Shown in pieces: positions 2,491 to 58,243 of a stretch of 64,000 bases of DNA. The DNA is from Squalus acanthias (taxonomy: Eukaryota). How positions within the stretch are numbered: the first letter of the stretch is position 1; each line of letters opens with the position of its first letter. The stretch is from positions 28,026,001 through 28,090,000 of the forward strand of contig CM059432.1 in assembly GCA_030390025.1 (NCBI GenBank), written 5' to 3'. The notes below the pieces were generated by a model that saw only the letters and a list, made by a program, of their open reading frames with translations, was not told where the DNA came from and ran no database searches. The position numbers and the translations under genes were made by a program.

Positions 2491-2732
2491 TTGGGAGAAT
2501 GTTTCTGTGTATTGATGAAATGCCATCCCTGTTGGAAAGCATTAAAATGATTTGATGCCAAAATGATGGTGTTATGGCATCTGTTCTTTCGCCTTAGGCA
2601 GCTCCACATTGCAGGCTCTGCCACACTTCCGTTGTCAGGTTGGTGGCCCTGAGTGAAAAGAGGCCAGAGTGTCATGTCCATTGTCAATGATGTCTTAGGA
2701 TGGAGCCAAGGACATGTGCCAACTTGGGCAAC

Positions 2733-4069
2733 CTATGCAAATCTGGCCATGATAAGTTCATCACTTGTATCCCGGGCAGCCATGTGCTCGCGTGCTGCCG
2801 CTGCTGCTGGTCGATACACCGGCGCGCTGACCTCCTCCAGATCCTCCTCCTCCTCATCTGAGGAGGGCTGGAACTGAGCCACTTGCTCATCAGGAAGCTG
2901 CAAGCCACGACGCTGTTCGATGTTGTGCAGTGTACAGAAGACCATGACCATTCTGGAGACCCTGTATGGTGTATACTGCCTGATCGGTCAAGGCAACGGA
3001 AGCGCATCTTAAACAACCCAATGGTTTGCTCGATGATGGACCTGGTCGAAGTGTGGCTGGCGTTGTAGCGCTCTTCAGCCTCGTTAGCTGGCCTCCTGAT
3101 CGGCGTCATTAGCTACTTCTTCAGGGGGTAGCCTTTGTCACCAAGGAGCCATCCGTTAAGTTGGTTTGGTGGATTGAAAAGCGGAGGAACACTAGAGTGC
3201 CGCAGGATGAAAGAGTCATGGCAACTACCACAGAACTTGCCGCAAACATGCAAGAACTCCTTCTTGTGGTTACACACCAGCTGTACATTGAGGGAGTGGA
3301 AGCCCTTTCGGTTGACAAAGATAGCTGGGTTGTGATGGGGTGCCTTAAGGGCCACATGTGTGCAGTCTATGACGCCCTGCACCATTGGCACGCCTACCAT
3401 ATTTGCAAAGCCAACCGAACGGGCGGTTATACTTGCTTGATCCCTTGAGAAGTGGATGTAATTGTGGGCCTTAGCAAAAAGGGCATCGGTAACCTGCCTG
3501 ATGCAACTGTGGGCAGCCGACTGGGAGATGCCGCTGATGTCTGCTGATGATCCCTGGAAGGAGCCTGAGGCAAAGAAGTTGAGTGCGGTGGTGACTTTGA
3601 CAGCCACTGGTAAGGGGTGTCCACCCGTTCCTCTGGGCACCAGGTCTTGCTGCAGCAGGCCGCAGATCTCTCGGACAACCTCTCGCGAAAGTCTCAGCCT
3701 CCTTTGGCACTGCTGCTCACTCATGTTGAGGTAGCTCATCCTTTGTCTGTAAACCCTCTGTCGGGGGTATCTCCTGTGGCGAGGTGCCTCGATGCACTGG
3801 CGCCTTCTGCCCTGTGCAGCATCAGGTGGCTGAGCAGGAGGTTGGGGCACCTGCTGATGTTGCTGCTGAGCTGCCTGAGCAGGAGGTTGGGGCTCCTGCT
3901 GCTGTTGCTCCTGAGCAGGAGGTTGGGGCTCCTGCTGCTGTTGCTCCTGAGCTGCCTGGGCAGGAGGTTGGGGCTCCTGCTGCTGTTGCTGCTGAGCTGC
4001 CTGGTTCTGCTGCTGACTTGGATGCTCCTCATCTGAGGTCCATGCAGAAAGAAAACGAATGGTTCCCAT
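2733..4069 (-). pseudogene. Harbinger DDE transposase (HARBI1-like family), disrupted
   Basis: Motifs [68 protein letters not shown]. In-frame TAG at 3113-3115 where W is expected, and a frameshifting deletion near 2975-2985. Confidence 0.9.
3828..4002. repeat. Coding tandem repeat (36-45 bp units) encoding [12 protein letters not shown](AAQ) in the transposase N-terminus
   Basis: Four copies of gagcaggaggttggggc(t/a)cctgctg(c/a)tgttgct visible; the translation shows the repeated peptide. Confidence 0.9.
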
Positions 4070-4402
4070 GCTGCTTGCAGATGCCTCCTTTGGGGAAGTG
4101 CTCATTGCAAGCGGGGAGAGGGTCTTCCAAGGAGGTCCCACAGTTGATAGATTCAAGTTGCAGCACCTCCGACTTTGGAAGGCCATCTAAAAGTGCTCAA
4201 AGACCTTTTAAAGCAAAGGTCTGGCACCTGCAAGTAATCCTTGATGAAATAAACAATGTCTTGTTGGACCTGCAGCTGTGAGGAGACCACCCACGAGTCA
4301 ACCCGCCAGGTTTACCTGGCGTGGTTTAGGAGGTGCGTGGATCACCCCGAAATGCTTGAAAAATCAAGAGGGCCTCTCAAAATAGGCTTAGCGAGGCCCT
4401 TA

Positions 4403-5603
4403 ACATAGAAAACATAGAAACATAGAAGATAGGAGCAGGAGCAGGCCATTCGGCCCCTCGAGCCTGCTCCGCCATTTAATGAGATCATGGCTGATCATCC
4501 AAATTCAGTACCCTGTCCCTGCTTTCTCCCCATATCCCTTGATCCCTTTAGCCTTAAGAAATATATCTAATTCCTTCTTGAATATATTTAATGAATTGGC
4601 CTCAACTGCCTTCTGTGGTCGAGAATTCCACAGGTTCACCACTCTCTGGGTGAAGAAATTCCTCCTCATCTCAGTCCTAAATGGCTTACCCCTTATCCTT
4701 AGACTGTGACCCCTGGTTCTGGACTCCCCCCGCCATCGGGAACATCCTTCCTGCATCTAGTCTGTCTAGTCCTGTTGGAATTTTATAAGTTTCAATGAGA
4801 TCCCCTCTCATTCTACTAAACTCTAGCGAATACAAGCCCAATCGTCCCAATCTCTCTTCATACGTCATTCCTGCCATCCCAGGTATCAGTCTGGTGAATC
4901 TTCGCTGCACTCCCTCCATGGCAAGAACATCCTTCCTCAGATAAGGCGACCAAAACTGCACACAATACTCAAGGTGTGGTCTCACCAAGGCCCTGTACAA
5001 CTGCAGCAAGACATCCTTGCTCCTGTACTCGAATCCTCTCACTGTGAAGGCCAACATACCATTTGCCTTCTTAACCGCCTGCTGCACCTGCATGCTTACC
5101 TTCAACGACTGGTGCACAAGGACTTCCAGGTCTCGTTGCACTTCCCCTTTTCCCAATCTATTGCCGTTCAGATAATCTGCCTTCCTGTTTTTGCCACCAA
5201 AGTGGATAACCTCGCATTTATCCACATTATACTGCATCTGCCATGCATCTGCCCAATCACCCAACTTGTCCAAATCATACTGGAGTTTCTCTGCATCCTC
5301 CTCACAACACACACGCCCACCCAGCTTTGTGTCGTCTGCAAACTTGGAGATATTACATCTAGTTCCCTCGTCTAGATCATTAGTATATATTGTGAATAAC
5401 TGGGGTCCTAGCACCGATCCCTGCGGTACCCCACTAGTCACTGCCTGCCACTCGGAAAAAGACCCGTTTATTCCAACTCTTTGTTTCCTGTCTGCCAACC
5501 AGTTCTCTATCCAAGTCAGTACCTTACCCCCAATCCCATGTGCTTTAACTTTGCACGCCAATCTTTTATGCAGAACCTTATCGAAAGCCTTCTGAAAGTC
5601 CAT
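4403..5603 (-). mobile_element. 5'-truncated CR1 LINE (RT C-terminal part plus 3' UTR) inserted in the Harbinger element
   Basis: ORF DFQKAFDKV...GVPQGSVLGP...KFADDTK; terminal stem-loop and (aacataga)n-type tail at 4403-4425. Confidence 0.93.
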
Positions 5604-12154: not shown

Positions 12155-13811
12155 TAGGGGTTTTATCCTCTCTAAGTTTGATCAGTTTATTAATTATCTC
12201 CCCCTTTCTATCTTAAATGTTATGATATCTTTTTTGATCGCTTCTTCTAATGTCATGACCACCCTGTTAGTCTCCCTGGTAAATACTGCGACAAAGTAAA
12301 TATTCAATATTTCTGCTATTTCGCTGTGAGATTATTGTGTGCACCACTTAGTGTCCCTATCCCTATTCTGATTTTCCTTTTGTTTTTTTATGTGCCTGTT
12401 TCTTTTAATATTCCTGTATAATTTAATTTTGTAGATCTTCTTTGCTTTCTTAATTGTTTTTTTGACATCTTTCCTAACCTCTTCGTATTCTCTTTTGTCA
12501 TCATCTCCCTTATTGTTCATGTACTTAGTGTCTGCCTTTTTCTTTAGTTTTAATTTTGTCCTTATCTCTTTATTCATCCACAGTGTTTCATTATTGGCTA
12601 GTTAGTTTTCATATTCTGCAAACTTTCTCACTGTGGTACATCAGGAAAATTTCAAGAATACCTCTTTAATCTTATATCCTGCGTTACACATCCTTGACCA
12701 GATGCCTTCGTTATGATAAAATTTCCAAGCAACTGCCAACTCAGGAACCATTGTGTTCCACAGACCTTCTCATATCTATATTGATCCTTATAATCCTTGC
12801 TCCTGTATCTAACTAGATCTTCACTCAGTTCATTTTAAATGTGTTACAATAATTGGCTCAGCATTAACTCCATTAGCTGTCGCACATGTTGGCTGCTTTG
12901 TATTTGCTTAATTTAATACTCATGTTGTCTGGTTCTGAGCATACAGCGAAACCTTACATAACTTGCTTGCATTTACTTTTATCCATTTTTCTTCGAAAAA
13001 ACTCTGACCAACATTCCACTCTCAACCATCACTGTCAAAAACACAGTTTAACAGGTTGGTTGTTGTTTGTGGGATCTTGCTCTATACAAAAAAAACAGTG
13101 ACTGTATTTCAAAAAGTAACTAATTGGATGTGCATTTTTTACTTCATTCTCGGGAGATGAGCGTCGCTAGCAAAGGCAGCATTTATTGCCCATCCCTAGT
13201 TGCCCTTGAGAAGGTGGTGCTGAACGTTTTGGAATGCCCTGAGGAAATGATAAGGTGTGATGTAAATGAAAGTTCTTTCTACCTATCCATTCCTTTCAGC
13301 ATTTTAAAAATTTGGTGAGTCTTTCTTCATAACTTAGAGCCCCGAATCCTGGAGCCATCGTTGTTGCTCTTCTCTTGAGTATCATCAACACATCAGCCTG
13401 TCATCGTTACAATTATGTCGTGAAGAAAATGTCATATACGAAAAGCAGATATTGATTAAAGGAAATACATGTACTCTAGTGCAATCCCCTCCTATTTTTT
13501 AACATCTTGCATATTCCACTCCTATTAGAGTGCCTGCCACAAATTAAGAAGGTTGGCGCGCAACCTGCTTCCAAAGCTTTGCCAGTGCCACTCCTGTGCC
13601 AGTTGAAAGAAGGCGAGCAAGAAAAATCCCATGCTGACTTGGCCTTTGAATTTTGTTTCCCTCCCTGTAGGGCACAGGTCCTTACTTAGCACATTTCACT
13701 GAAAGCATGGGCAAATCTGACCTTGATGCGGAGATGCCGGTGTTGGACTGGGGTGGACAAAATTGAGAGGTCGCACAACACCAGGTTATAGTCCAACAGT
13801 TTTATTTGAAA

Positions 13812-13853
13812 TCACAAGCTTTCGGAGCTATCGATCGCCCCTTCCTCAGGTGA
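13812..13853 (-). ncRNA. Minimal type I hammerhead ribozyme motif (mirror copy, on the TG sense strand)
   Basis: Exact reverse complement of 13887-13928. Confidence 0.65.
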
Positions 13854-13886
13854 AGTAAAGAAATACAGACTCGGTATTTCTTTACT

Positions 13887-13928
13887 TCACCTGAGGAAGG
13901 GGCGATCGATAGCTCCGAAAGCTTGTGA
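13887..13928 (+). ncRNA. Minimal type I hammerhead ribozyme motif (PLE-type)
   Basis: tcac-CTGAGGA-a-ggggc(gatcgata)gctcc-GAAA-gc-tt-gtga: stem I tcac/gtga, CUGANGA core, stem II, GAAA, palindromic aagctt stem III. Confidence 0.65.
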
Positions 13929-15103
13929 TTTCAAATAAAACTGTTGGACTAAAATCTGACCTATCATAGTGTGGCACAATGCTTTAGAATGGCAAAGGCA
14001 CAATGTCAACACTGTGGCCTTTCCGTGGTTCACTTCTTTATTAATTGAATGATAATGGAGATTATTTAGATCCTTCCTGTGACCCAAAAGGCTACCATTT
14101 CCTGGCAGCAGTATGGAACACATCATATTGCATATGCTTGGTTCTGGCAGAAAGGATTTTATCAGCATCTCGCTGAGCAAGCATCTGTAAACCCCTGCTT
14201 ATAAAGCATCAAAGCCTTCCTTTAATGAGCTAGTCTAGTGCCTCTGCGTTGTTAATAATCAATACATATGTTTCGCCACAGGATCTGAAAGCTAGCAGCT
14301 ACGATGAGCCAAATTGAGAAATGGCAAATTGAAGAGACTATTCCAATGGGACATAGTACAATTGAAGATGTTGTTACGCAACAGGCACAGCACATGCTGT
14401 CCCTCTGGTGGGAATGAGGGAAGGTACCTGAGGGAGAGAAAAAATGCAAAGTCCATCCATTTTCCAAAGCTTAAGGCATGTGCCACCAAAAATGAAAAAT
14501 TGCAAATAGCTGCCCAAAAAATCTTGCACGTGATGCTATTCTATATAGCGGATAGGGGAATTTTAGATGAGCGCGTTAAGTCTTCATTTACTAATATCCC
14601 ATGTCGTAATTTTAGGGCCGCAGTTTCTTTTATTATCCATTCTCCAAATTAAGCAGTAGGAGCCCAGTTAGCCAATTCTGTTGACTGTAGATCAAAAGGA
14701 CTCAAAGGAGACTGTGCGGAGGAGCTACTTGGAGAATTCAGAACACATTACAATAAGGAGAATGGCAAAGTGTCTGGAGAAAGGGAGAGACTACAGATGA
14801 GTTGTAACTTTAATAAGAAACTATAGGGTAAATTCAGTCCTCACAGTGGGGAGCCATGGTCAAACAGAGATAGGGCAACAATACTGTAGTCCAGATTCTC
14901 CCACCTGCACTCCCTTTGAGCGCAGCTCCCCTTTGGGAGTATGGGAGCACTGACACATTGTGAGTCCTGAAGTTAGGCAATAACTGGACAACAAAAGAGG
15001 GCACCAAAGTTAAAGAATGAAGCAAAGGAGAATAAATTAGTGGAGTCAAAGGAATGAAGTAAAGAGAGAAGGTTGGAAAAGATGGAGTGTAGCAGAAGTC
15101 AGC

Positions 15104-17420: not shown

Positions 17421-18959
17421 AACATAGTGCCATCCATGTTTAGAACAACTGATAAGTGAAAAACATCCCCGAATACACTCCTGTGAAGGTAGATTTACAA
17501 TTCCGTGCTTGAAGCTTCATGCCAGGATTCATAAGTTCTACCCTATAATTACACTGAAAGTGCAGTGGGACATAGGTTTATCACATCTTCAGCTGCATGT
17601 CCGTCCAACATTGCATCACTTGTTCAGTAGAAAATTGTGAGAAAAATTACAGGGATGCTCCCTCATTTCTTGTGGAGTTGTTGTTGTCATGTATTGATAC
17701 TATCTGAGCTCAATCTGATCAATTGCTTTAAAATCATTTATGTGGTTGTGACAGTGACACTGAGCCACTCTTCCCCCCCCCGCACCGCGTGTTCCCCCCC
17801 GCCCAGTTTAAATTGCCATTCTTCACCCCCTCCTCCAGTTAATGCTGTTCCTCTCCGACAGTCCCCCCCAACACCCGATCATGCTGCACTCTGACCCCCC
17901 CTCCGCAGTTCATGCTGCACACTTATCCCCATTCCCCCAGATTATGGTAACACCCTCTTGGCTCTCCGCACTCAGTTCATGTTCCACCCATTTCTCCCTG
18001 CCACGTCACCGCTGTTCTCTGCTCAAAGCCACGTGACCTCAAAACCTGATTATGTGTATCTCAGTCATTGGCATGTATGCAGAGGGGTGTTCCAAGGCTC
18101 ATAAATCATTTTATTTTTTCTTTCACTATGTTGGTAAGAGATTCAGTGCTGGGGTATGGAATACTTTAGAAACAAGAACACCACTCAGCACTTTCTGGTC
18201 ATGTCAGGTACAGTTTAGATTCACAGAAATGCTCCTCCTGTGCAAACAATGGACTCGATGGGTTTTCTCGTTCATCCCCTTCTAATGTTCTTGTATACCC
18301 TTCCCAAAAATGTACCTTAACGCCAATGCCTCAAAAGAGCGCTCTACTGTGGCAGGGTATCATTTCCATTGCTCATGCCACACAACCATGCACTTTTTTT
18401 TAACTGCGTCTGAGAATTTAGGGATAAAGTTTATGATTTGGCACAGAGCTTTGCATGACAGGAGCGTTAAATTGTAAAATTTACAAATTCTACAAGTGCC
18501 AATTTGTACACAAATATGGGTTGTTTTATTTTCTGGAAACTGATTGAGGCTGTCCAGACTCATATTACTTACAATGCTTCCATTTGGCAGAGAGAGGAGA
18601 CGTTCATCCTCTCTGTCTGGGCTGGATTTGAACCTAGCAACCAGATGTACAGGGTTATTGTCCTATTTCTAATCTGCAGTGTTACCCAGTCACCATTAAA
18701 TTAAAATAAAACCTAGATTTCCTCTCTGGCTCCCATGTTTTTTTGCCCTGGCTTTCCTCCTCACCATCAGGCAACCATTCCCCTTCAGAACTTAGGATGG
18801 TACAAGCTGTAGACTTCTCCCTGAGGTGACAACAGAAAACGCTGGAAAAACTCAGCAGGCCAGGCAACATCCGTGGAGAGAGAAACAGAGTTAACGTTCC
18901 TGTTCTTGCCCCACGGAACTTATCTCTTCCTATCTTGACTCTATTTTTTCTCCCCTTGT

Positions 18960-20439
18960 CCAGTCTCTTCCCACCTACATCCGCGACTCCTCTGACGCCC
19001 TCCGCCACTTTAACAGTTTCCAGTTTCCTGGCCCCAACCGCCTCCTTTTCACCATGGACGTACAATCCCTCTACACCTCCATCCCCCACCAGGATGGCCT
19101 GAGGGCGCTCCGCTTCTTCCTTGAACAGAGGCCCAACCAGTCCCCATCCACCAGCACCCTCCTCCGCCTGGCTGAACTTGTTCTCACATTAAACAACTTC
19201 TCCTTTGACTCCACTCATTTCCTCCAAATCAAAGGTGTTGCTATGGGAACCCGCATGGGTCCTAGCTATGCCTGCCTTTTCGTGGGATATGTGGAACACT
19301 CTTTGTTCCAGTCCTACTCAGGTCACCTCCCTCACCTCATTTTCCGGTAATTGATGACTGTATCGGTGCCATTTCCTGCTCTCGCCCTGAACTAGACAAT
19401 TTCATTCACTTTGCCTCCAATTTCCATCCTTCCCTCACCTTCACATGGTCCATCTCCGACTCTTCCCTTCCCTTCCTCGACTTCTCCGTCTCCATCTCTG
19501 GGGATAGGTTATTGACCAACATTCAATACAAGCCCACTGACTCCCACAGCTACCTGGACTACACTTCCTCCCACCCCGCCTCCTGTAAGGACTCTATTCC
19601 CTTCTCCCAGTTTCTCCGTCTCTGCCGCATCTGCTCTGACGATACCACCTTCCATACCAGTGCTTCCGACATGTCTTCCTTTTTCCTCAACCGAGGATTC
19701 CCCTCTACCGTGGTCGACACGGCCCTTGACCGTGGTCGACACGGCCCTTGACCGTGTCCGTTCTATCTCCCGCACTTCTGCCCTCATCCCGGCCCCTCCC
19801 TCCCGGAACCATGATAGAGTTCCCCTTGTCCTCACCTTTCACCCCACCAGCCTCCACATTCAACGGATCATCCTCCGCCATTTCCGCCTCCTCCAACGTG
19901 ATCCCACCACCAAACATATCTTCCCCTCACCTCCCCTTTCAGCATTGCGTAGGGACCGCTCCCTCCGAGACACCCTAGTCCACTCCTCTATCACCCCCAG
20001 CACCACTTCCCCCTCGCCCGGCACCTTCCCATGCAAGCGCAGGAGATGCAACACCTGCCCTTATGCATCCCCCCTTCCCACTCTCCAGGGCCCCAAACAC
20101 CCCTTCCAGGTGAAACAGCGATTTACTTGTACTTCTTGCAATTTAGTATACTGTATTCGCTGCTCACGATGCGGTCTCCTCTACATTGGGGAGACCAAAC
20201 GCAGACTGGGTGACCGCTTTGCGGAACACCTCCATTCAGTCAGTAAGGGTGACCCTGAGCTTCCGGTCGCTTGTCATTTTAATTCACCGCTCCACGCCCA
20301 CTCAGACCTCACCGTCCTCGGCCTCTTGCATTGTTCCACGGAAGCTCAGCGTAAACTCGAGGAACAGCACCTCATCTTCCGATTAGGCACTTTACAACCT
20401 TCCGGACTCAATATCGAGTTCAACAATTTCAGATCATAA
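18960..20439 (+). pseudogene. PLE reverse transcriptase plus GIY-YIG endonuclease, disrupted
   Basis: NLVYCIRCSRCGLLYIGETKRRLGDRFAEH...EEQHLIFRLGTLQPSGLN; the YIDD motif is broken by a 1-bp loss near 19349; a 22-bp tandem duplication at 19707-19750 shifts the frame. Confidence 0.9.
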
Positions 20440-20735
20440 CCTCGGCCCCTACCACATATATATATATATATATATTTTATCCACCCTTTTGGTTTGTGCC
20501 TTTTCCCTTTTTTTTCTCTCTCTCCCCCACAGCAGCTGTCTTTCATTCTGCCAGCATTTCACACTTCACACTTCTGAGGCATCTTTTGTTTCTTAACCTG
20601 TCCTATTACCATCTCGTCTTCCCTTGAGCATCTCTTAATATCTCTACTTATCATAGACCACCCCTTTTGTTCTTTTATTCCTCCCCCCAGCCTCCCACTT
20701 GCTTTTTTATCTGTTTCATTTCCTGCTTTTTTCTC

Positions 20736-20772
20736 AGTTCTGACGAAAGGTCTTCGACCTGAAACGTTAACT
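20736..20772 (+). ncRNA. Minimal hammerhead ribozyme motif in the PLE 3' pseudo-LTR
   Basis: agtt-CTGACGA-a-aggtc(ttc)gacct-GAAA-cg-tt-aact with palindromic aacgtt stem III. Confidence 0.7.
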
Positions 20773-21533
20773 CTGTTTCTCTCTCCACGGATGTTGCCTG
20801 GCCTGCTGAGTTTTTCCAGCATTTTCTGTTGTTGTTTCAATTTTCCAGCATCCGCAGTATTTTGCTATCGTTCTCCCTGAGGTTGTTGTGTGCCAGGTTT
20901 CCCCTCTCCTGAATGCAGCAGCTTAGCACTGTACAACTTCACATTCTAGCTGCCCAGCTGAGAACGGCCAAAGCTCACCCCTGTAAGCTTTGAGCAACAG
21001 CCATCCGTGGGAGTCAAGCATGTGACCATCTCAATAGGATTTCTTCCACAGAACCACATAGTGACCACAGCCTCCAAGTACCTCATACCAAAGAAGCATA
21101 GAATGATACATCACAGGAGGAGGTCCTTCAGCCCATCGTGCCTGTGCTGGCTCTTTGAAAGAGTCCCACTCCCCTGCCCTTTTCCCATAGCCCTGCAAAT
21201 TTTTCCCCTTCAAATATCATCCATTTCCCTTTTAAAAGTTATTATTGAATCTGCTATCACCATCTTTTCAGGCAGTGCATTCCGGATCATAACAACTTGC
21301 TGAGTAAAAAACATTCTCCTCATCTTATCTCTGGTTCTTTTTCTAGTTGACATATCATAGTTGAATGGAAAACGTTCACATACCAATTCATAATGGTAGA
21401 TGTCAACACAAAAGCATAACCCAAAAATCATGATAACAGTAAGTAAGGTTTCTGGACAGGAAGTGCACGCTTATGCAAGATTATTCGTATAATATAGATA
21501 CATTAAAATAACATTTACTGCACTGTTACTGAC

Positions 21534-30682: not shown

Positions 30683-33020
30683 AAAGTCCTTGACCATAAT
30701 ATTACATTGATGGTCGCTGCTTCTCTTCCAAGAAGCCTCCTGGTTCTCTTAGCAGGTCATGATACACTTCACAATTCCTTTAAATTCCACTCGGACCAAA
30801 GGAAATCAAATATGTATCTCTTCTGATTGCATCAGGCTATCAGGCAGCGATAGGATGGCACACAGAAAGGATATTTGCTGGTCAACGTAACCTCTTGCAC
30901 CGTTTGAAGTTTATATCTGTGATGCCGAGTACTAGCTCTTATACAGATAATATCAATGACACTCCTGTCCAGAATAACACAAATGACTTTAGACTTAATA
31001 CTAATATTAAAACCACTTATTGTTTCAGTGTAGCAATCCACAGTCACATCAGATCTGTTCCCGTACTGTATTGTATCAGCTAGACTGGGTCATTGCTTTA
31101 CTTTTTTTTATTTGTTCCTGGGATGTGGGAATCGCTGGCAAGGCCAGCATTTATTGCCATCCCTAATTGCCCTTGAGAAGGTGGTGGTGAGCCGCCTTCT
31201 TGAATCGCTGCAGTCCGTGTGGTGAAGGTACTCCCACAGTGCTGTTAGGGAGGGAGTTCCAGGATTTTGACCCAGCGACGATGAAGGAACGGCGATATAT
31301 TTCCAAGTCAGGATGGTGTGTGACTTGGAGGGGAACTTGGAGGTGATGGTGCTCCCATGCGCCTGCTGCCCTTGTCCTTCTAGGTGGTAGAAGTCGCGGG
31401 TTTGGGAGGTGCTATCGAAGAAGATATGGCAAGTTGTTGCAGTGCATCTTGTAGATAGTACACACTGCAGCCACGGTGCGCCGGTGGTGGAGGGAGTGAA
31501 TGTTTAAGGTGGTGGATGGGGTGCCAATCAAGTGGGCTGCTTTGTCCTAGATGGTGTCGAGCTTCTTTAGTGTTGTAGGAGCAGCATTCATCCAGGAAAG
31601 TGGAGAGTATTCCATCACACTCCTGACTTATGCCTTGTAGATGGTGGAAAGGCTTTTGGGAGTCAGGAGGTGAGATACTCGCCACAGAATATCCAGCCTC
31701 TGACCTGCTCTTGCTGTCACAGGTATCTATGTGGCTGGTCCAGTTAAGTTTCTGGTCAATGGTGACCCCCAGGATGTTGATGGTGGGGGATTCGGTGATG
31801 GTAATGCCGCTTAATGTCAAGGGGTGGTGGTTAGACTCTTTCTTGTTGGAGATAGTCATTGCCTGGCACTTGTGTGGCGCGAATATTACTTGCCACTTAT
31901 CAGCCCAAGAATGCTGTCCAGGTCTTGCTGCATGCGGGCATGGACTGATTCATTATCTGGCGAGTTGCGAATGGAACTGAACACTGCAATCATCAGCAAA
32001 TATCCCACTTCTGACCTTATGTTGGAGGGAAGGTCATTGATGAAGCAGCTGAAGATGGTTGTTTCTAGGACACTGCCCTGAGGAACTCCTGCAGCGATGT
32101 CCTGGGGCTGTGATGATTGACCTCCAACAACCACAACCATCTTCCTTTGTGCTAGATATGACTCCAACCAGTGGAGAGTTTTCCCCCTGATTCCCATTGA
32201 CTTCAATTTTACTAGGGCTCCTTGATGCCACACTCAGTCAAATGCTGCCTTGATGTCAAGGGCAGTCACTCTCACCTCACCTCTGGAATTCAGCTCTTTT
32301 GTCCATGTTTGGACCAAGGCTGCAATGAGGTCAGGAGCCAAGTGGTCTTGGCAGAACTGGGCATCAGTGAGCAGGTTATTGGTGAGTAAGTGCCGCTTGA
32401 TTGCACTGTTGGTGACACCTTCCATCACTTTGCTGATGATTGAGAGTAGACTGATGGGGCGGTAATTGGCCAGGTTGGATTTGTCCTGCTTTTTGTGGAC
32501 AGGACATACCTGATCAGTTTTCCACAATGTCGGATAGATGCCAGTACTGTAGCTGTCCTGGAACAGCTTGGCTAGTTCTGGAGCACGTCCTCAGCACGAC
32601 AGCCGGGATGTTGTTTTGGCCCACAGCCTTTGCTGTATCCAGTGTGCTCAGCCATTTCTTGATATCACGTGGAGTGAATCGAATTGGCTGAAGACTGGCT
32701 TCTGTAATGGTGGGCACGTCAGGAGGAGGCCGATATGGATCATCCACTTGGTACTTCTGGCTGAGGATAGTTGCAAACGCTTCAGCCTTGTCTTTTGCAC
32801 TCGCGGGCTGGGATGAGGATGGGGATATTCATTGTGCCTCCTCCTCCCGTCAGTTGTTTAATGGTCCACCACCATTCATGACTGGATGTGGCACGACTGC
32901 AGAGCTTTGATCTGATCCATTGATTGTGGGATCGCTTAGCTCTGTCTATAGCATGCTGCTTCCACTGTTTAGCATGCATGTGGTCCTGTGTTGCAGCTTC
33001 CCACCTCATTTTTAGTTATG

Positions 33021-33188
33021 ATAGCAAAATACTGCGGATGCTGGAAAATTGAAACAACAGCAGAAAACGCTGGAAAAACTCAGCAGGCCAGGCAACATCC
33101 GTGGAGAGAGAAACAGAGTTAACGTTTCAGGTCGAAACCCTTCATCAGAACTGAGAAAAAAGCAGGAAATGAAACAGATAAAAAAGCA
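33021..33188 (-). mobile_element. PLE 3' terminal (pseudo-LTR) segment, same family as 18828-20870
   Basis: Reverse complement is nearly identical to 20700-20868. Confidence 0.9.
33117..33152 (-). ncRNA. Minimal hammerhead ribozyme motif
   Basis: agtt-CTGATGA-a-gggt(ttcg)acct-GAAA-cg-tt-aact on the minus strand; canonical CUGAUGA core and UUCG loop. Confidence 0.72.
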
Positions 33189-33190
33189 TT

Positions 33191-36100
33191 TAGAAACATA
33201 GAAACATAGAAAATAGGTACAGGAGTAGACCATTCGGTCCTTCGAGCCTGCATCGCCATTCAATGCGTTCATGGCTGAACATGCTACCTCAGTACCCCAT
33301 TCCTGCTTTCTCGCCATACCCCTTGATCTCCCTAGTTGTGAGTGTAATATCTAACTCCCTTTTGAATATATTTAGCGAACTGGCCTCAACAACCTTCTGT
33401 GGAAGAGAATTCCATAGATTCCCCACTCTCTGGGTGAAGAAGTTCCTCCTCAGCTCAGTCTTAAATGGCTTCCCCTTAATCCTTAGACTGTGACCCCTGG
33501 TTCTAGTTTTCCCTAACATTGGGAACATTCTGCCCGCATCTAATTTGTCTAAACCAGTCAGGATTTTAAATGTCTCTATAAGATCCCCCCTCATTCTTCT
33601 GAACTCCAGAGGATACAAGTTCAGTTGACCCAATCTTTCTTGATATGTCAGTCCGGCCATCCCAGGAATCAATCTAGTGAACCTTCGCTGCACTCCCTCA
33701 ATAGCAAGAATGTCCTTCCTTAAGTTAGGAGACCAAAACTGCGCACAATACTCCAGGTGTGGCCTCACCAAGGCCCTGTACAACTGCAGCATCACCTCCC
33801 TACTCCTGTACTCAAATCCCCTTACTATGAAGGCCATCATTCCGTTTGCTTTCTTGACTGCCTGCTGCACTTGCATTCCCACCTTCAGTGACTGATGTAC
33901 CATGACGCCCAGGTCTCGTTGCACCTCCCCTTTCCCTAATCTGCCACCATTCAGGTAATAGTCCGCCTCTCTATTTTTACCACCAAAGTGGATAACCTCA
34001 CATTTATCCACATTGTACTTCATCTGCCATACATTTGCCCATTCACCCAACCTGTCCAAGTCACTCTGTAGCCTCCTAGCATCCTCCTCATTGTTCACAC
34101 TGCCTCCCAATTTAGTGTCATCCGCAAATTTGGAGATATTACATTTAATCCCTTCATCCAAATCATTAATATATAATGTAAACAGCTGGGGTCCCAGCAC
34201 CGAACCCTGCGGTACCCTGCTGGTCACTGCCTGCCATTCTGAAAAGTACCCATTTACTCCTACTCTTTGTTTCCTGTGTGCCAACCAATTCTCAATCCAC
34301 GTCAACACATTACCCCCAATCCCATGTGCTTTAACTTTGCTCACCAATCTCTTGTGTGGGACCTTGTCGAAGGCCTTCTGAAAGTCCAAATACACCACAT
34401 CTACTGGTTCCCCCCTGTCCACCCTATTGGAAACATCCTCAAAAAATTCCAGAAGATTTGTCAAGCATGATTTCCCTTTCACAAATCCATGCTGACTTGG
34501 ACCTATCATGTCGCCACTTTCCAAATGGTCTGTTATGACATCTTTAATAATTACTTCCATCATTTTACCCACGACCGATGTCAGGCTGACCGGTCTATAA
34601 TTCCCTGCTTTCTCCCTCCCTCCTTTTTTAAAAAGAGGGGTTACATTGGCCACCCTCCACTCCATCGGAACTGATCCAGAGTCTAAGGAATGTTGGAAAA
34701 TGATCGTCAATGCATCCACTATTTCCAAGGCCACCTCCTTAAGTACTCTGGGATGCAGACCATCAGGCCCCGGGGATTTTTCAGCCTTCAGTCCCATCAA
34801 TTTCCCCAATACCTTTTCCCGACTAATAAGGATTTCCCTCAGCTCCTCCCTCTTACCAGATCCTCTGACCCCTTTTATTTCCAGCAGGTTGTGTGTGTCC
34901 TCCACAGTAAATACCTAACCAAAGTACTTGTTCAATTGATCTGCCATTTCCTTGTTCCCCATTACGACTTCCCCTGTTTCCGACTGCAGGGAACCTACGT
35001 TTGTTTTTACTAACCTCTTTCTTTTTACATATTTATAGAAGCTTTTGCAGTCCATTTTAATGTTCTCTGCAAGCTTCCTTTCATATTTTATTTTCCCTGC
35101 CCTAATCAAACCCTTCGTCCTCCTCTGCTGAGTTTTGAAGTTCTCCCAGTCCCCGGGTTTGCTGCTACTTCTGGCCAATTTGTATGCAACTTCCTTGGTT
35201 TTAATACTATCCCTGATTTCCCTTGTTAGCCATGGTTGAGCCACCTTCCCTTTTTTATTTTTACGCCAGACCGGGATGTACAATTGTTGTAGTTCATCCA
35301 TGCGATGTCTAAATGTCTGCCATTGCCCTTCCACTGATAGCCCCTTAAATATCGCTTGCCAATTTAACCTCGCCAATTCACGCCTCATACCCTCAAAGTT
35401 GCCCTTATTTAAGTTCTGGACCATGGTCTCTGACTTAACTGTTTCCTTCTCCATCCTAATGTAGAACTCCACCATACTATGGTCACTCTTCCCCAGGGGG
35501 CCTCGTACCACAAGATTGCTGATTAGTCCTTCCTCATTACACAACACCCAGTCCAGGATGGCCTCCCCTCGAGTTGGTTCCTCAACATATTGGTTTAGGA
35601 AACCGTCCCTTAAACACTCCAGGAAATCCTCCTCCACCGTATTGCTTCCAGTTTGAGTAGCCCAATCTATATGCATATTAAAGTCACCCATGATAACTGC
35701 CGTGCCTTTTTTGCATGCACCTCTGATTTCCTGTTTCATACCCTCCCCCACCTCACTACTGCTGTTTGGAGGTCTGTACACAACTCCCACTAACGTTTTC
35801 TGCCCTTTGGTGTTCTGCAGCTCAACCCATATTGATTCCACATCCTCCAAGCTGATGTCCTTCCTAGCTATTGCATTAATCTCCTCTTTAACCAGCAATG
35901 CTACCCCACCCCCTTTTCCTTTTATTCTATCCTTTCTGAATGTTGAATACCCCTGGATGTTCAGTTCCCAGCCTTGATTGTTCTGGAGCCACGTCTCTGT
36001 AATCCCAATCACATCGTATCCGTTAACATCTATTTGCACAGTCAATTCATCCACCTTATTACGGATACTCCTTGCATTAAGACACAGAGCCTTTAGGCTT

Positions 36101-36489
36101 GTTTTATTAACATCCTTTGTCCTTTTAGACTTATGATTTAGTATGGCCCTTTGTGTTTCTTGCCTTTGTTTATTCGGCCTTCCCCTATTGTTTCTCACCC
36201 TTCTAACATTTGTTTCTGACTGCATATTACTTCCCCCTGTTTCGCTACATAGGTTCCCATTCCCCTGCCATATTAGTTTAAATCCTCCCGAACTGCTTTA
36301 GCAAATATTACCCCGAGGACATCGGTTCCAGTCCTGCCCAAGTGCAGACCGTCCCTTTTGTACAGGTCCCACTTCCCCCAGAACTGGTTCCAATGCCTCA
36401 GGAATTTGAATCCCTCCCTCCTGCACCACTGCTCAAGCCACGTATTCAATCTCACTATCCTGTTCTCTCTATTCTGATTAGCACGTGGC
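33191..36489 (-). mobile_element. Young CR1 LINE: ORF1 C-terminus and ORF2 (36225-33289) with a single in-frame TAG at 34915-34917
   Basis: Complete EN and RT motifs; ORF1 end ...KRDGLHLGRTG...; (aaacatag)n tail at 33191-33212. Confidence 0.96.
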
Positions 36490-36605
36490 CCTGCTTTTTT
36501 CTCAGTTCTGATGAAGGGTTTCGACCTGAAACGTTAACTCTGTTTCTCTCTCCACGGATGTTGCCTGGCCTGCTGAGTTTTTAGAGCATTTTCTGTTGTT
36601 GTTGT
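36490..36605 (+). mobile_element. Inverted PLE terminal segment closing the composite
   Basis: Inverted copy of about 33055-33167; followed by TSD ctcatttttagttatg. Confidence 0.9.
36504..36539 (+). ncRNA. Minimal hammerhead ribozyme motif
   Basis: Identical to the motif at 33117-33152 but on the plus strand. Confidence 0.72.
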
Positions 36606-39326
36606 CTCATTTTTAGTTATGCCTGGTGCTGCTCCTGGCATGCTCTTCTATACTCCTTATTGAACCAGGGTTGATCCCCTATCCTGATGGTAATGAGGGA
36701 TATGCCGGGCCATGAGGTTACAGATTGTGGTGGAGTACAATTTTGATGCTGCTGATGGCCCACAGCGCCTCATGGATGCGCAGTTTTGGGCTGCTAGATC
36801 TGTTCTGAATCTATCCCATTTAGCACGGTGGTCGTGCCACACAACACAATGGAGGGTGTTCGTAGTGTGAAGACAAGTCTTCGTCTCCACAAGGACTGTG
36901 TGGTGGTCACTGCTGCCAATGCTGTCATGAGCAGATGCATCTGCGACAGGTAGATTGGTGAGCATGAGGTCAAGTAGGTTTTTCCCTTGTGTTGGTTTTC
37001 TCACCACCTGCCGCAGGCCCAGTCTGGCAGCTATGTCCTTCAGGACTCGGCCAGTAGTGGTGCTACCGAGCCACTCTTGGTGATGGACATTAAAGTCCCC
37101 CACCCAGAATACATTCTGTGCCCTTGCTACTCTCAGTGCTTCTATCCAAGTGGTGTTCAACATGGAGGAGTACTGATTCATCAGCTGAGGGAGGACGGTA
37201 GGTGGTAATCAGCAAGAGGTTTCCTTGCCCATGCTTGACCTGAAACCATGAGACTTCGTGGGAACCCGAGTCAATGTTGAGTACTCCCAGGGCCACTCCC
37301 GTATACCACTGTGCCCCCTCCTCTGGTGGGCCTGCCCTGCCGGTGGGACAGGACATACCCAGGGATGGTGATGGAGAAATCTGGGACATTGGCTGAAAGG
37401 TATGATTCTGTGAGTATGACTATGTCAGGCTGTTGCTTGACTAGTCTGTGGGACAGCTCTCCTAATTTTGACACAAGTCCCCAGATGTGAGGGTCGACTG
37501 GGCTGGGTGTGCCTTTGCCTTGTCTGAAGCTGGTGCTAAGATCGATGCCGGAAGGTCCGTCGGTTTTATTCTTATTATTGTTTTCTGTAGCGGTTTGTTA
37601 CAACTGAGTGGCAGAGCGCAATTAAGAGTCAACCAAATTGCACACATATAGACCAGACCAGGTAAGGACAGCAGATTTCCTTCCCTAAAGGGCATCAGTG
37701 AACCAGATGGATTTTTACTGACAATCCAATAGTTTTATGGTCACCATTACTGATACTAGCTTTTTATTCCAGATTTATTTAATTAACTGAATTTAAATTC
37801 CCCAGCTGCTGTGGTGGGATTTGAACTCATGTCCCTGGATCATTAGTCCAGGCCGCTGGATTACTAGTCCAGTAACATAACCATTATGCTACCATTCCCA
37901 GTGACAAGAAATAAGTAAGTAACATAATACAATTTTTTTTGTCACACCATCATAAAACATGACCAAACAAACCTCCAGAAAAATAAGAGACAACATTCTG
38001 CTCCCGGAGCAATAACAGATCTAAAGAGGTTTAGGTTGTTCCTATGTAAGGCACTGATCAGACCTTAGCTGCAGTACTGCGCTGTTTTGGTCGCTTCATG
38101 ATGGAAAAGATATGCTTCAAAGAAATCCCATTATCTTGATTCACAGTAGTGTGTCTAACACACTCTCTTACAGATGACCATTATGTGGAAGTGACCTTTA
38201 TGTTAGTACTGAGACCTTAAGGGTTTTTCTTCCAATAATTTTCTGCTATTTAATATAAGATGCCAGTGCTGGGGATTTTCTTTTCTCTCATTGTTGCCAC
38301 AGTGTCAGTATTGAGTACCAATATGCCTGGTATTGCATGCACCAGAGTCTGAGTAAAACTGCTGTACTCAGGTGGTTCATATGAACATTAAAGATCCCTA
38401 CAGTAGAATCATAGAAGATAGGAGCAGGAGTAGGCCATTCGGCCCCTCTAGCCTGCTCCGCCATTCAATGCGATCATGGCCGATCGTACTATTTGAAAAG
38501 CAGTAAGTTCACCTGGTGTACTGGCCAGCGTTCCTTGCTCAATTATCGCCCCCAAAACAAGAGTCATTATTCTCATTAGGAACATAGGAATAGGAGTAGA
38601 TCATTCAGCCCCTCGATCCTGTTCCACCATTCAATTAGATCATGGGTGACCTGTACCACAATTCCACTTACCCACCTTAGCTCCATATCCTTACCCAACA
38701 AAAATCTATTGATCTCAGTCTTGAAAGTTTCAACTGACTCAACATCCACAGCGTTTTGGAGGAAGAGAGTTCCAGATTTCTATTACCCTTTGTGTGAAGA
38801 AGTGCTTCTTGATTTCACTCTGGCTCTAATTTTAAGATTGTGCTATCTCATTCATTGCTTTGTGGGAACGTGTGGGCAAAATGGCTGACACATTTGCCTA
38901 CATAGCATTCAGTGGCATTTCAAAGTAACTCATTGTATGTGCAACACTTAGGAACAATTTCTGAGAGAAGTGTTAAGATGCTATGTTTCTAGTGATAGCA
39001 AGGATATTATTGCCCTGCAAAGGTTCCAAGGGGGCAATGAAGATAATCAGGAATCTAAGTTATGAGGAAATATGGAACTTGAGATAAAACATAGGCTTAA
39101 ATGGGCCAAGCAAAGGCATGCAGCTATTCAATAAGGGGGTGTAAAATGGATTTGCCGACTGGCATAGTGGGTTAATGCAACACCAGGTGTGGTCCTAAGT
39201 CATAAAGAATGGAACTTCCCCTAGTTTGATTCCTAGTCTGTGCTGGTTTCAGCCAGAGGTGGTAACAGTTCTGCTGCAATTGGCCAAATTGCCCTAAGGC
39301 TAGATGAGAGAAAAAAAAATCACCTA

Positions 39327-50432: not shown

Positions 50433-53400
50433 AATGCAGGGGTCCCCTGTGGACATCCCCCTCTCAAACAGATATACCACTTTGGATACTGTTGGGGGGG
50501 ATGACTTATCAGGGGAAGGCAGCAGCAGCCAACTTCCTGGCACCATGGGTGGCTCTGCTGCACAGGCTGGGAGGAAAAAAGAGTGAAAGAGCTATAGTGA
50601 TAGGGGACTCAATTGTAAGGGGAATAGATAGGCGTTTCTGCGGCCGCAACCGAGACTCCAGGATGGTGTGTTGCCTCTCTGGTGCAAGGGTCAAGGACGT
50701 CTCGGAGCGGCTACAGAACATTTTGGAGGGGGAGGGCGAACAGCCAGCTGTCGTGGTGCACATAGGCACCAACGATATAGGTAAAAAAGGGGATGAGGGC
50801 CTAAAAGCAGAATATAGGGAGTTAGGAGGTAAATTAAAAATAGGACCTCAAAGGTAGTAATCTCAGGATTGCTACCAATGCCACGTGCTAGTCAGAGCAG
50901 AAATAGGAGGATATTTCAAATGAATACGTGGCTAGAGGAATGGTGCAAGGGGGAGGGATTCAAATTCCTGGGACATTGGAACCAGTTCTGGGGGAGGTGG
51001 GACCAGTACAAACCGGACGGTCTGCACCTGGGCAGGGCCGGGACCGCTGTCCTAGGGGGAGTATTTGCTAGTGCTGTTGGGGAGGGTTTAAACTAAAGTG
51101 GCAGGGGGTTGGGCACCTGAGCAGGGAGACAGAGGAAAGCGTGTTAGGAAGGGACAGAAGGTATGGAGTAAAAGGTAAAGTGTTAAAAAAGGAAAAAGCA
51201 GGAACTAAGTGTCACAAAACATATTTGAAAGTTCTTTATCTGAATGCACGTAGCATTCGTAACAAAATGGACGAGTTAACGGCACAAATAACTACATATG
51301 GGTATGATCTTGTGGCCATTACAGAAACATGGCTGCAGGGTGACAACGACAGGGAATTAAATATGCCAGGGTATTTAACAATCAGGAAGGACAGGCAGGA
51401 AGGAAGGGGAGGTGGGGTGGCTATGTTAATAAAGGAAGGAATCACTGTAATACAGAGAAATGATATTGGGTCAAAGGATCAGGATAATGAAACAGTTTGG
51501 GTGGAGATAAGGAATAATAAGGGGGAAAAAAAACACTAGTGGGAGTAGTATATAGGCCTCCTAATAGTTGCAACTCTGCTGGAAGAAGTATTAATCAGGA
51601 AATAGTTGGGGCATGTAATAAGGGAACAGCTATAATTATGGGGGATTTTAACTATCATATTAACTGGACAAATCAAATTAGGCAGGGCAGCCCTGAGGAA
51701 GAGTTTATTGAGTGTATTTGGGATAGTTTTCTTGAGCAGTATGTAACTGATCCTACAAGGGGGCAAGCAACTTTGGACCTGGTCCTGTGTAATGAGTCAG
51801 GATTCATTAATAATGTCCTAGTTAAGGATCCCCTTGGAATGAGTGACCATAACATGGTTGAATTCCATATCCAATTAGAGGGTGAGAAGGTTGGTTCTCA
51901 AACAAGCGTACTGAGCTTGAAGAAAGGAGACTATGATGGTATGAGAGCGGAATTGATTAAAGTAGACTGGGAAAATAGATTAAAGGGTAAGACGGTACAT
52001 GAGCAGTGGTGTTCATTTAAGGAGTTATTTTACAACTTTCAAAAGAAATATATTCCACTGAGGAAAAAAGGTTGTAAAAGAAATGACAGCCATCCGTGGC
52101 TAAGTAAAGAAATTAAGGATAGTATCCGAATAAAAACAAGGACATATAAGGTAGCCAAACTTAGTGGGAGGATAGAAGATTGGGAAGTCTTCAAAAGACA
52201 GCAAAAAGTAACTAAAGGATTGATTAAGAAAGGGAAGATAGATTATAAAAATAAATTAGCAAAAAATATAAAAACAGATAGCAAGAGTTTCTATAGTTAT
52301 ATAAAAAGAAAAAGGGTGGCTAAGGCAAACGTAAGTCCCTTAGAGGATGAAACCGGGAAATTAATGGTGGGAAACATGGAGATGGCAAAAATGCTGAACA
52401 AATATTTTGTTTCAGTCTTTACGGTAGAGGACACTAAGAATATCCCAACACTGGACAAACAGGGGGCTCTAGGGGGGGAGGAGCTAAATACAATTAAAAT
52501 CACTAAGGAATTGGTACTCAGTAAAATAATGGGACTCAAGGCGGATAAATCCCCTGGACCTGATGGCTTACATCCTAGGGTCTTGAGGGAAGTGGCAGTA
52601 GGGATTGTGGATGCTTTGGTAATAATTTACCAAAATTCCCTGGAATCAGCAAAGGTCCCGGCAGATTGGAAAACTGCTAATGTAACACCCGTATTTAAAA
52701 AGGGTAGTAGGCAGAAGGCTGGAAATTATAGACCAGTTAGCCTAACATCTGTGGTGGGTAAAATTTTGGAGTCTATTATTAAGGAGACAGTAACGGAACA
52801 TTTAGATAAACATAATTTAATAGGACAAAGTCAGCATGGCTTTATGAAGGGGAAGTCATGTCTGATAAATTTGCTTGAGTTCTTTGAGGACATAACGTAC
52901 AGGGTGGATAAAGGGGAACCAGTGGACGTAGTGTATTTAGACTTCCAGAAGGCATTCGACAAGGTGCCACATAAAAGATTATTGCTCAAGATAAAAAATC
53001 ACTGGATTGGGGGTAATATTCTGGCATGGGTGGAGGATTGGTTATCTAACAGGAAGCAGAGAGTTAGGATAAATGGTTCATTCTCGGACTGGCAACCAGT
53101 AGCCAGTGGTGTTCCGCAGGGGTCGGTGCTGTGTCCCCAACTCTTTACAATCTATATTAACGATTTGGAGGAGGGGACCGAGTGTAACATATCAAAGTTT
53201 GCAGATGATACAAAGATGGGAGGGAAAGTAGAGAGTGAGGAGGACATAAAAAACCTACAAGGGGATATAGACAAGCTGGGTAAGTGGGAGGAGATTTGGC
53301 AGATGCAATACAATATTGGAAAATGTGAGGTTATGCACTTTGGCAGGAAAAATCAGAGAGCAAGTTATTATCTTAATGGCGCGAAACTGGAAAGTACTGC

Positions 53401-56061: not shown

Positions 56062-58095
56062 CCCCAAACTCACATCAAGTAGGGCCCATGCAGCTGGCCG
56101 TGAGAGGAGACTTTCAGCCGATCAGTCTGGACTGAGTTCGTGCAAAGATCTAAGAAGTGAAAGGAAAGTGTGCACCACCCCTGGGCCCTCAAGATTTCAT
56201 TTTAAAAAACAAGTTCACTAAATGGTCAGATGCTGAAACGATGAAGCAAGAGAATCAAAACACATGTGCAAAGAAAACTACTGAACAGGCCTGAAATAAT
56301 TGAGAACAGATGAAATATCAACAGCTGGAGCTCTATTTTGGGAGGTATTTCTCATAGTCTGGTAAGGAAATGTTCTCAATTTCTATTTATTTCATTTTTC
56401 ATGACACTATTTTAAGGCTTTATTTAGATTTTTGTTTCAGTTTTCTGCAGAAGGTGGTGATTCATTCCAGAGGAAAAGTTCCATGGGTGTCACCAGGCCC
56501 CCACAGGTGGCCATTCTTCAGGTGGAAGCTATTCCACCTCTGGGGCATCACAGACCCAATCCTGTCCTCACACACACTTTCAGCAAGGATTCCTGGACAG
56601 GAAGCTTGGTTAAGTTTTGTTTTCCCCCTCTCTAGTCCAGCTGCACTTAAGTCGCATGTAGTTCTCCCACTTTTGCTAACTTGTTAACATTAACTCAGAC
56701 CGGGGATCAAACCTAGGACCTCCCTGCTCTACATGGCTCACTATTACACCGCCTGAAGCTCTTTTCCTTTGAGCCTGTTTATGCACATTGGGGTAAGTTT
56801 CCACCTACATCACATGTAATCTGGCAGAGTGGATCGCCTGGCCTATTTCCAATCAAAAATGGGTGGGTTCTATAAAGGACGGGATTATCACCCCTGCGGT
56901 GAAGACAAAAACGTACCCCATTATTTATCATTTCAGAATATAAAATTGGTAAAGAGGCCATCAGCAAAAATGATGTACAGATATGCTTCCCCCCTCCCCC
57001 CCCCACCCCGCTAAAATGATTCCTGAGCACTTTTCCCGCCAGTTCCTCTTCCCCGTCTGAAGGGTTTGATTTCTTCCTGAGGTGTAGTCGCACTGTGCTA
57101 CCACGCTCGAGCGGCCATTATCCACGTGTGAGCTTTAAAACTGAGTTAATGCAACTGCTCGGAACATCCCAACTAATTATAGCATCGCAGCCCCAGCTGA
57201 GATCTGCTAACCTGGGAATTCCCCAGTCTGTATAGTTAAGCTAGTCACGGGATCAACTCGTTGAGCCATCAGAGGAATGTTCAACATTCTGCATGAAGAC
57301 AATTCCTCTTTAAAGTCGACCAACCAAATCTCTTTTGCTAGCTCTCCTCGCCTTGTCCCTTCTTGCGCTCCCCGTTCTGGTAGAGATTCTGCATACTTTA
57401 AAAGCAGCTCGAATTTTCACAACAACACTACATATTGTTTAAAGGCAATTACCGTAGCGAGGAGATAAAACATAATCTTCCATTTATCCCAGTTAATGTA
57501 GCCGTTTTCATGCTCCACTGATCCCCAGACCCATAAATAAGTTACTCTACAACCTCAAAGGCTTATATTTATTTAAGATAAAAGCCCTTATCACCCTCTG
57601 TATCTATTTGGCAAGGCTCATTCTGCTTATGTTAAGCTGAGGCCTCAAAGGACACCTCATTCTAGTGAAAAGAATCATTAGTAACTAAAGTACTTGACTA
57701 TAACAGTCTCTGATACAGTATGATCACTGCGATAAGGTGTATGAAGGCTCCCTCTCTAACGGAGAACCCAACATAAAACTCTCCTTCCGTAATGCACCTG
57801 TCTCAATAGTGCATTATTTGGGTTACTAAGCACAAACGTTCCTGGCAACCAGAGTGATTCTCCCCCCCTCTCAACCCCCACATTATTTCTGATTTAATCA
57901 GGGAAATTAAACAGGAAGTCTGTAAGTGCTCATTGGGATAAAATTTACAATTTTGTACTCCTGGCACATATTGGAAATTCAGACACAGAAGTCAATGCGC
58001 CCCATTCATGACCTACGCAATCTTCCATCTATTAAATTTAAATGCTCTGTGCCATGAGCACCAAATTGTAAAATTTTGCACTTTATGTCAAAACT

Positions 58096-58243
58096 AAAAA
58101 CAGAAAATGCTGGAAATTCACATTAGGTCAGCCAGCATCTGAAAGTGAGTTTTGATGCAGGGTTGCAAACAGAACATGAACCTATACTTTCTCTTTCAGA
58201 TGTTGACTTGATCTGGTATACATTTCCAGCATTTTCTGTTTTT
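58096..58243. mobile_element. Old palindromic PLE-terminus remnant
   Basis: aaaaacagaaaatgctggaaat ... atttccagcattttctgttttt inverted ends resemble the PLE termini at 18828 and 20810. Confidence 0.55.

Follow-up and report, generated by a model that had tools for sequence, protein, structure and literature searches.

A CR1 element between two Penelope-like arms

The 64,000-nt stretch of the Squalus acanthias genome analyzed here (contig CM059432.1 of assembly GCA_030390025.1, positions 28,026,001 to 28,090,000 of the forward strand; hereafter the window, with positions counted from its first letter) holds a composite retroelement made of the 3' end of a Penelope-like element (PLE), a CR1 long interspersed nuclear element (LINE), and an inverted PLE arm, all under one exact 16-bp target site duplication (TSD) inside an older LINE. 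No PLE coding sequence lies in its interior. Sequence comparison bore out the order TSD, PLE 3' terminus, 3.3-kb CR1, inverted PLE terminus given in a preliminary description of this DNA, and the structure is confirmed as first described, with minor corrections. Its parts, and an ordinary PLE copy used for comparison, are as follows (strand in parentheses; RT stands for reverse transcriptase, ORF for open reading frame, APE for apurinic/apyrimidinic endonuclease, and UTR for untranslated region).

32234-33004 (-): host, older frameshifted APE-type LINE, RT side (RVT_1 in 32237-32590; ORFs)
33005-33020: 16-bp TSD, tail side; exact match to 36606-36621, single copy in the host family
33021-33188 (-): PLE 3' end, 168 nt, including a 32-nt one-sided tail (33021-33052); 97% to 20700-20869
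33121-33148 (-): minimal type-I hammerhead-like core of the long arm, motif only (core regular expression; stem II fold; no Rfam match)
33189-33190: two additional bases where arm and tail meet, next to a 2-3-nt match of the arm end to the CR1 tail repeat (alignment with 20660-20890)
33191-33288 (-): CR1 3' UTR and intact octamer-repeat tail (repeat family comparison in the window; tail scan)
33289-36297 (-): CR1 ORF2 frame (APE endonuclease and RT) with one stop at 34915-34917 (ORFs, Pfam, protein matches)
36273-36489 (-): 3' end of CR1 ORF1, the CR1 being 5'-truncated at 36489; 82% to another CR1 (50880-51139) that extends further upstream
36490-36605 (+): inverted PLE arm, 116 nt, without tail (comparison with the long arm)
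36508-36535 (+): minimal hammerhead-like core of the short arm, motif only (core regular expression; stem II fold)
36606-36621: 16-bp TSD, arm side; exact match to 33005-33020
36622-37419 (-): host, older frameshifted APE-type LINE, endonuclease side (Exo_endo_phos in 36657-37205)
18829-20869 (+): comparison copy, an ordinary PLE of the same family as the arms (70-nt inverted arm, truncated RT and GIY-YIG body, 3' end, 13-bp TSD)

To look beyond the window we used contigs from sequencing runs, 20 of the 24 listed runs containing part of the stretch and none being recorded as RNA. Contigs of four runs were placed on 32400-37200; all were short and none bridged the unit. The results given below come from the best 15 of 1,348 joints, 40 of 281 differences, 24 of 7,607 loose ends, and 32 of 386,299 pieces, a selection biased to joints with long sides.

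The two 16-mers are identical and their match extends on neither side; with a slack of 10 nt per side, the chance of such a match is ca. 4e-7. Contigs of the host family continue without a break into the 16-mer at 36606, in 67 records of run X1 and 138 of run X7, so that the 16-mer is single in this family and the TSD first claimed represents a real duplication. Compared with these contigs, the host LINE is without ca. 9 nt just outside the tail-side TSD (32996-33004), a gap that the insertion may have left or that may have preceded it. On the arm side, both TSDs of the PLE family have TGAG/TGAGGT as their last letters (33005-33020 and 20870-20883), which hints at a sequence preference of the PLE endonuclease from two cases; the chance of a 6-mer common to both ends is ca. 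0.002, a figure calculated post hoc.

The Penelope-like arms and their cargo

Compared with its relative in the window, the composite has an outer anatomy that is ordinary for the PLE family, and its cargo alone is unusual. In both this unit and the 18829-20869 copy, the inverted arm begins 32 to 36 nt inside the 3' end, leaving a one-sided tail (32 nt in the composite versus ca. 36 nt in the other copy, with TSDs of 16 versus 13 bp). The inverted 5' arm, the tail of 30 to 40 nt on one side only, and the TSD around the whole unit are those of endonuclease-bearing (EN+) PLEs. Because this layout matches both the ordinary copy of the family and published PLE anatomy, the TSD and both arms were taken as the work of a PLE.

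On the predicted domains of the coding copy at 18829-20869, an RT with a C-terminal GIY-YIG endonuclease, the family is classified as EN+; the matches in 18895-20439 (RVT_1, E 5e-4; GIY-YIG, E 6e-4) are both below the Pfam cut-offs. This coding copy has 212 relatives at E values up to 1e-30, several of them with 750 to 950 amino acids and the match at the C terminus. A CxxxxCxxC linker before the GIY-YIG domain (19516-20439) may point to Neptune/Nematis rather than Poseidon, on the linker motif and not on a tree; just one of eight homologues was named, which was uninformative for the clade. The body of this copy also has a short tandem duplication of ca. 19 nt that shifts the frame (19721-19757). 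Two further sites in the window resemble PLE termini: an old, diverged 3' end with an apparent inverted partner at 58091-58200 (79% over 49 nt to the young family) and, in a second family, a near-perfect fold-back at 13782-13958 with 88-nt arms (97%) that are 1 nt apart and a hammerhead-like core in each arm.

The short arm (36490-36603, plus strand) has 96.5% identity to the long one, with the inner 92 nt identical and four differences in the outer 22 nt, corresponding to three mutation events. At one of these four positions the two ends of the 18829-20869 copy disagree as well, which suggests that two PLE templates were used.

The hammerhead stem II is of the same variant in both arms and differs from the copy at 20740-20768. 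The preliminary description was right on this point, and yet the shared variant has no weight and says nothing about mechanism, because both arms stem from one PLE event in every model. The arms have the features of minimal type-I hammerheads described for PLE termini, a conserved core, an unpaired base before helix II, and a palindromic helix III, and such motifs are reported to cleave poorly as monomers (excerpts of PMC4209133). Helix II is only 4 bp long and closed without the typical G-C pair, and the fold is not better than that of shuffled sequences (z 0.75-0.78). No Rfam family reached its gathering score anywhere in the window, and no hammerhead family was among the two Rfam matches at E values up to 10 in 33000-33300. 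Thus, we consider the arm hammerheads a motif-level call and predicted ribozymes only. A template switch at the predicted ribozyme cut (ca. 33120/33121) was excluded, since the arm continues ca. 67 nt beyond that site.

PLE inversion points are concentrated within the hammerhead. In each of the four runs, fold-back joints of PLE sequence alone center on its stem II (33135 to 36520-36540), making up five rows among the 15 of 1,348 joints shown (12 contigs in X1, for example), and the arm at 18829-18898 ends in the helix III palindrome.

The cargo is a 3.3-kb CR1 that is 5'-truncated in ORF1 and has its 3' tail intact. The ORF2 frame (33289-36297, minus strand) has 1,003 codons, no frameshift, and one internal stop at codon 461, in agreement with the single nonsense change reported before, and matches the Pfam APE endonuclease and RVT_1 families. 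Its best named protein matches are from rays and sharks (72 to 80%), and RT proteins of birds and turtles match at ca. 50%. With an APE and RT ORF2, a tandem-repeat 3' tail, and similarity to vertebrate CR1-type RTs, the cargo probably belongs to the CR1 clade, a name based on these features rather than on a tree or a match called CR1. It shares the ORF2 domains and the octamer tail with other LINEs of this clade in cartilaginous fishes and differs from them in being without a TSD of its own and bounded by PLE arms. In the overlap of ORF1 and ORF2 (36273-36285, minus strand), a TTTAAAC heptamer stands directly before the ORF1 stop, and ORF2 is in the -1 frame.

The CR1 fills the gap between the arms precisely, and so, as proposed at the outset, it sits exactly where the PLE body would be. 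Its tail meets the arm as described, except that two extra bases (33189-33190) stand between them. That the CR1 and the arm have the same orientation had also been counted as an argument. It is automatic and has no weight, because whichever way a CR1 lies between inverted arms, its tail faces the arm of its own orientation.

Within 4 nt of its two junctions, the CR1 is flanked by no duplication of ≥3 bp, the best candidate being a 2-bp GC, so the observation that it has no TSD of its own stands. The argument from it is stronger than the accompanying statement that CR1 often lacks TSDs allows, given that TSDs of the CR1 clade peak at 3 to 5 bp in the available part of PMC4245944 (citing Ichiyanagi and Okada), where ZfL2-1 inserted with short TSDs in 21 of 30 cases in HeLa cells and in 93% of cases in DT40 cells. 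Two other CR1 copies in the window were tested, with junctions set by eye. One of them, at 4404-5603, is 5'-truncated, 81% similar to the cargo, and flanked by a 4-bp TTAA TSD at its junctions; the other has a weak candidate of 4 to 5 bp. Beside the 4404-5603 copy lies a transposase-like ORF (2684-4186), presumably Harbinger-like.

Both parts of the composite are young, the CR1 being 0.3 to 0.9% from its family and the arms identical over 92 nt. The lower value comes from 10 of the 32 CR1 rows shown, which are near-private to the cargo copy (at least 0.3%); the upper one comes from 19 differences in 2,033 nt to near-consensus contigs (0.9%, an upper bound). These contigs belong to run X7, in which the CR1 subfamily, together with the PLE segment that lies upstream of the hammerhead, appears on 33150-36450 at ca. 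1e-4 of the X1 depth, tracking X1 (rho 0.74 at 10 hand-picked places). This signal is either contamination at trace level or, in the organism of X7, a family of very low copy number. The contigs were rejected as an orthologous copy and used as near-consensus only, because their letters are those of the family and not private ones, and because their depth follows that of X1.

Origin of the composite

We consider it likely that the composite arose in one PLE-driven event, whether by a template jump or from a read-through RNA. Tentatively, we favor a jump of PLE cDNA synthesis onto the 3' end of a CR1 RNA during a single insertion. In such an event, the PLE GIY-YIG endonuclease would have cut both strands 16 nt apart in the older LINE, where the TSD is observed; this enzyme is suggested by the TSD length and by the motif shared with the other copy of the family. 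Priming would have been at the outer RT start for one end, with 168 nt copied, and for the other at an inner start 32 nt further in, with 116 nt copied, matching the anatomy observed. The end of the long cDNA may then have paired by 2 to 3 nt with the CR1 tail repeat, gained two bases, and been extended along the CR1 RNA by either the PLE RT or the CR1's own, which the sequence does not tell apart. Copying would have stopped in ORF1, with the end joined to the short arm.

This proposal draws on the pattern by which chimeric retrotransposition is recognized, a single TSD around all parts and none around the inner one. The CR1 3' end is complete, with the short match to the arm end and the extra bases at the joint. 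Extra bases are expected for template jumping by the R2 RT (PMC8857657, in part), and for an Anolis PLE it is described that in vitro both strands are cut and extended, from two RT starts a tail length apart (PMC11167929, in part). A complete 3' end with extra bases would thus fit template jumping, and it would fit ordinary CR1 priming equally well. The joints shown include CR1 tails attached to PLE sequence (33123, 33129, and 33133) and to the host LINE (32802). The positions near the fold-back hot spot at 33135 fit a capture where PLE cDNA often ends; they may equally be nesting or PLE insertion behind CR1 tails.

Several points weigh against a single event. The composite is one locus for which no other allele, second copy, or orthologue was seen. 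Both the tail match and the extra bases also result from ordinary CR1 priming, and the other CR1 copies of the window show the same tail match. Long target deletions occur with this LINE group (2 of 30 insertions in HeLa cells, PMC4245944, in part). Both families are very abundant, so nesting of CR1 in PLE certainly happens, and the joints at 33123 to 33133 may be instances of it. The comparison of arm and CR1 divergence proposed in the preliminary description gave a mixed answer: both parts are young, which is also compatible with two events close in time, and the three mutation events between the arms are slightly above the prediction from the CR1 age (P 0.03-0.34). Template jumping by a PLE RT was not found in the literature examined. 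In favor of capture, a rough count model gives ca. 0.4 to 13 loci of this kind genome-wide by nesting, a number that capture would reach at a rate of only 3e-5 to 1e-4 for each armed PLE insertion; these figures are to be read as orders of magnitude only, since the inputs were assumed (single-copy depth of 15 to 50, a 3.7-Gb genome of unchecked size, 1 to 3% of nested cases looking alike) and summed contig depth stands in for a true copy number.

The searches for further copies had little reach. The composite junction has no second copy in the window; pattern scans of metagenome and viral contigs gave no matches and had little power for such a copy; and the junction-spanning frame, compared with a protein collection, gave one candidate, which held no second copy (0/1, low power). 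Two joints that might have represented an empty allele (33002-36610 and 33003-36622) were rejected, as they have other letters and look like host paralogues.

The preliminary description had offered two explanations, chimeric retrotransposition and later nesting. They were the right ones, and the chimeric one is favored here, but neither is proven and a third, read-through of a CR1-PLE RNA, had been missed. By nesting, an armed PLE would have come first and a CR1 would later have inserted by its own target-primed reverse transcription, either at the inversion point (possibly cruciform-prone and nicked) or deleting the center. This we hold to be unlikely, though a live alternative. It agrees with the high abundance of both families in runs X1, X3, and X10, with the existence of PLE-only fold-backs and of CR1 tails abutting PLE and host-LINE sequence at other positions, with a CR1 3' junction that resembles normal priming, with the three events separating the arms, and with the target truncations of >20 bp known for this LINE group (PMC4245944, in part). 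Yet the CR1 is flanked by the inner ends of both arms and not by continuous PLE sequence, so a nested CR1 must either have struck the inversion point exactly or have removed it by a deletion, which we estimate, by assumption, for 1 to 3% of nested cases. No 33188-to-36490 joint appeared among the 15 of 1,348 joints shown, a weak argument. The missing 3- to 5-bp TSD is modest evidence in the same direction, because CR1-clade elements usually make one and the window has a 4-bp example; blunt and truncated sites also occur, so it is not decisive.

Read-through co-mobilization (a PLE 5' transduction) is somewhat more doubtful again than nesting. Here a source locus in which a CR1 tail and a PLE 3' end were already linked would have been transcribed and copied in trans by PLE protein, the product being truncated in ORF1 and capped with an inverted arm. 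This would account jointly for the CR1-like 3' junction and the missing CR1 TSD, and the contig joints indicate that CR1-tail/PLE tandems exist in the genome. In the available parts of the sources, pseudo-long terminal repeat (pLTR) sequences suffice for mobilization in trans in Adineta (PMC3846280), and hammerhead cleavage is dispensable for insertion in vitro (PMC11167929). However, the low-power protein search returned no second copy of the junction that a source would carry, and the arms differ at four outer positions, one apparently polymorphic in the family, where a single RNA with one terminus predicts otherwise. Inverted arms are break-prone, and repair after insertion, with the PLE body lost at a break and replaced by a CR1 copied from DNA, would agree with this and with the 9-nt deletion just outside the tail-side TSD. 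Nevertheless, we regard repair as very improbable: the cargo starts exactly at the CR1 RNA 3' end, without flank of a donor locus, and there is no long homology at either junction. With a single locus and nesting still a live alternative, the composite is a lead rather than a result. The copy itself is most likely a dead end and inert, because it has no CR1 promoter and one stop in ORF2, although the PLE 3' signal is kept.

Relation to known captures and meaning

Capture of cargo by PLEs is already known from rotifers. In Adineta vaga, PLE termini and a TSD surround a nonribosomal peptide synthetase (NRPS) gene as well as further unrelated sequence, and an empty allele was shown (Arkhipova et al. 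2013, PMC3846280; this and the other papers of this section were available in part). As in our composite, unrelated sequence lies between pLTRs with an inverted 5' pLTR, one TSD, and no PLE coding sequence inside, and its capture was attributed to PLE proteins acting in trans. The main rotifer case differs in being an intron-containing NRPS gene between two direct pLTRs and an inverted one, the other captured pieces being noncoding. In the shark composite, in contrast, the cargo is a LINE of another clade that starts at the 3' end of its RNA, a direct 5' pLTR is missing, and we saw no empty allele.

The canonical EN+ PLEs (Craig et al. 2021, PMC8557442) share the inverted truncated copy at the 5' side, the 30- to 40-bp tail at one end, the hammerhead motif in the termini, and the TSD; from these and from the Anolis Poseidon element PAc (Frangieh et al. 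2024, PMC11167929), the composite differs in having its body replaced by a CR1. A 2026 bioRxiv preprint describes animal retrozymes as nonautonomous PLE sequences. The LINE-1 chimeras U6/L1 and Alu/L1 (PMC13174262) are similar in that a single TSD encloses a second sense RNA attached 5' of the 3' end of a truncated retroelement; they arise by template switch or RNA joining and are usually one-off. Here, the driver is a PLE, the passenger is an autonomous-type 3.3-kb LINE, and there is an inverted arm in addition, and whereas co-arrival of the LINE-1 chimeras was established by multispecies alignments, the composite is known from one locus. We found no PLE/LINE chimera in the open-access literature; subscription papers, Repbase reports, or supplements may hold one. 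If the single-event reading holds, what is new is a vertebrate case with a LINE as cargo.

How PLE integration is completed and how the inverted arms are made is still an open question (PMC11167929 and PMC8557442). If the composite was made in a single event, it would be a fossil of a PLE integration intermediate in which both ends were primed separately and then joined, with template jumping in between, and PLE cargo capture would extend from a rotifer to a vertebrate and to a LINE as cargo. We think it a long shot that the PLE machinery of this genome regularly captures, in the course of two-ended insertion, the 3' ends of RNAs from other retrotransposons and so makes LINE units capped by PLE sequence, which retain the PLE cis-signal and could be mobilized again as nonautonomous composites. 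Were this true, it would amount to piggybacking across classes of retroelements, with near-intact LINE ORF2 genes carried along and the target choice being that of the PLE endonuclease.

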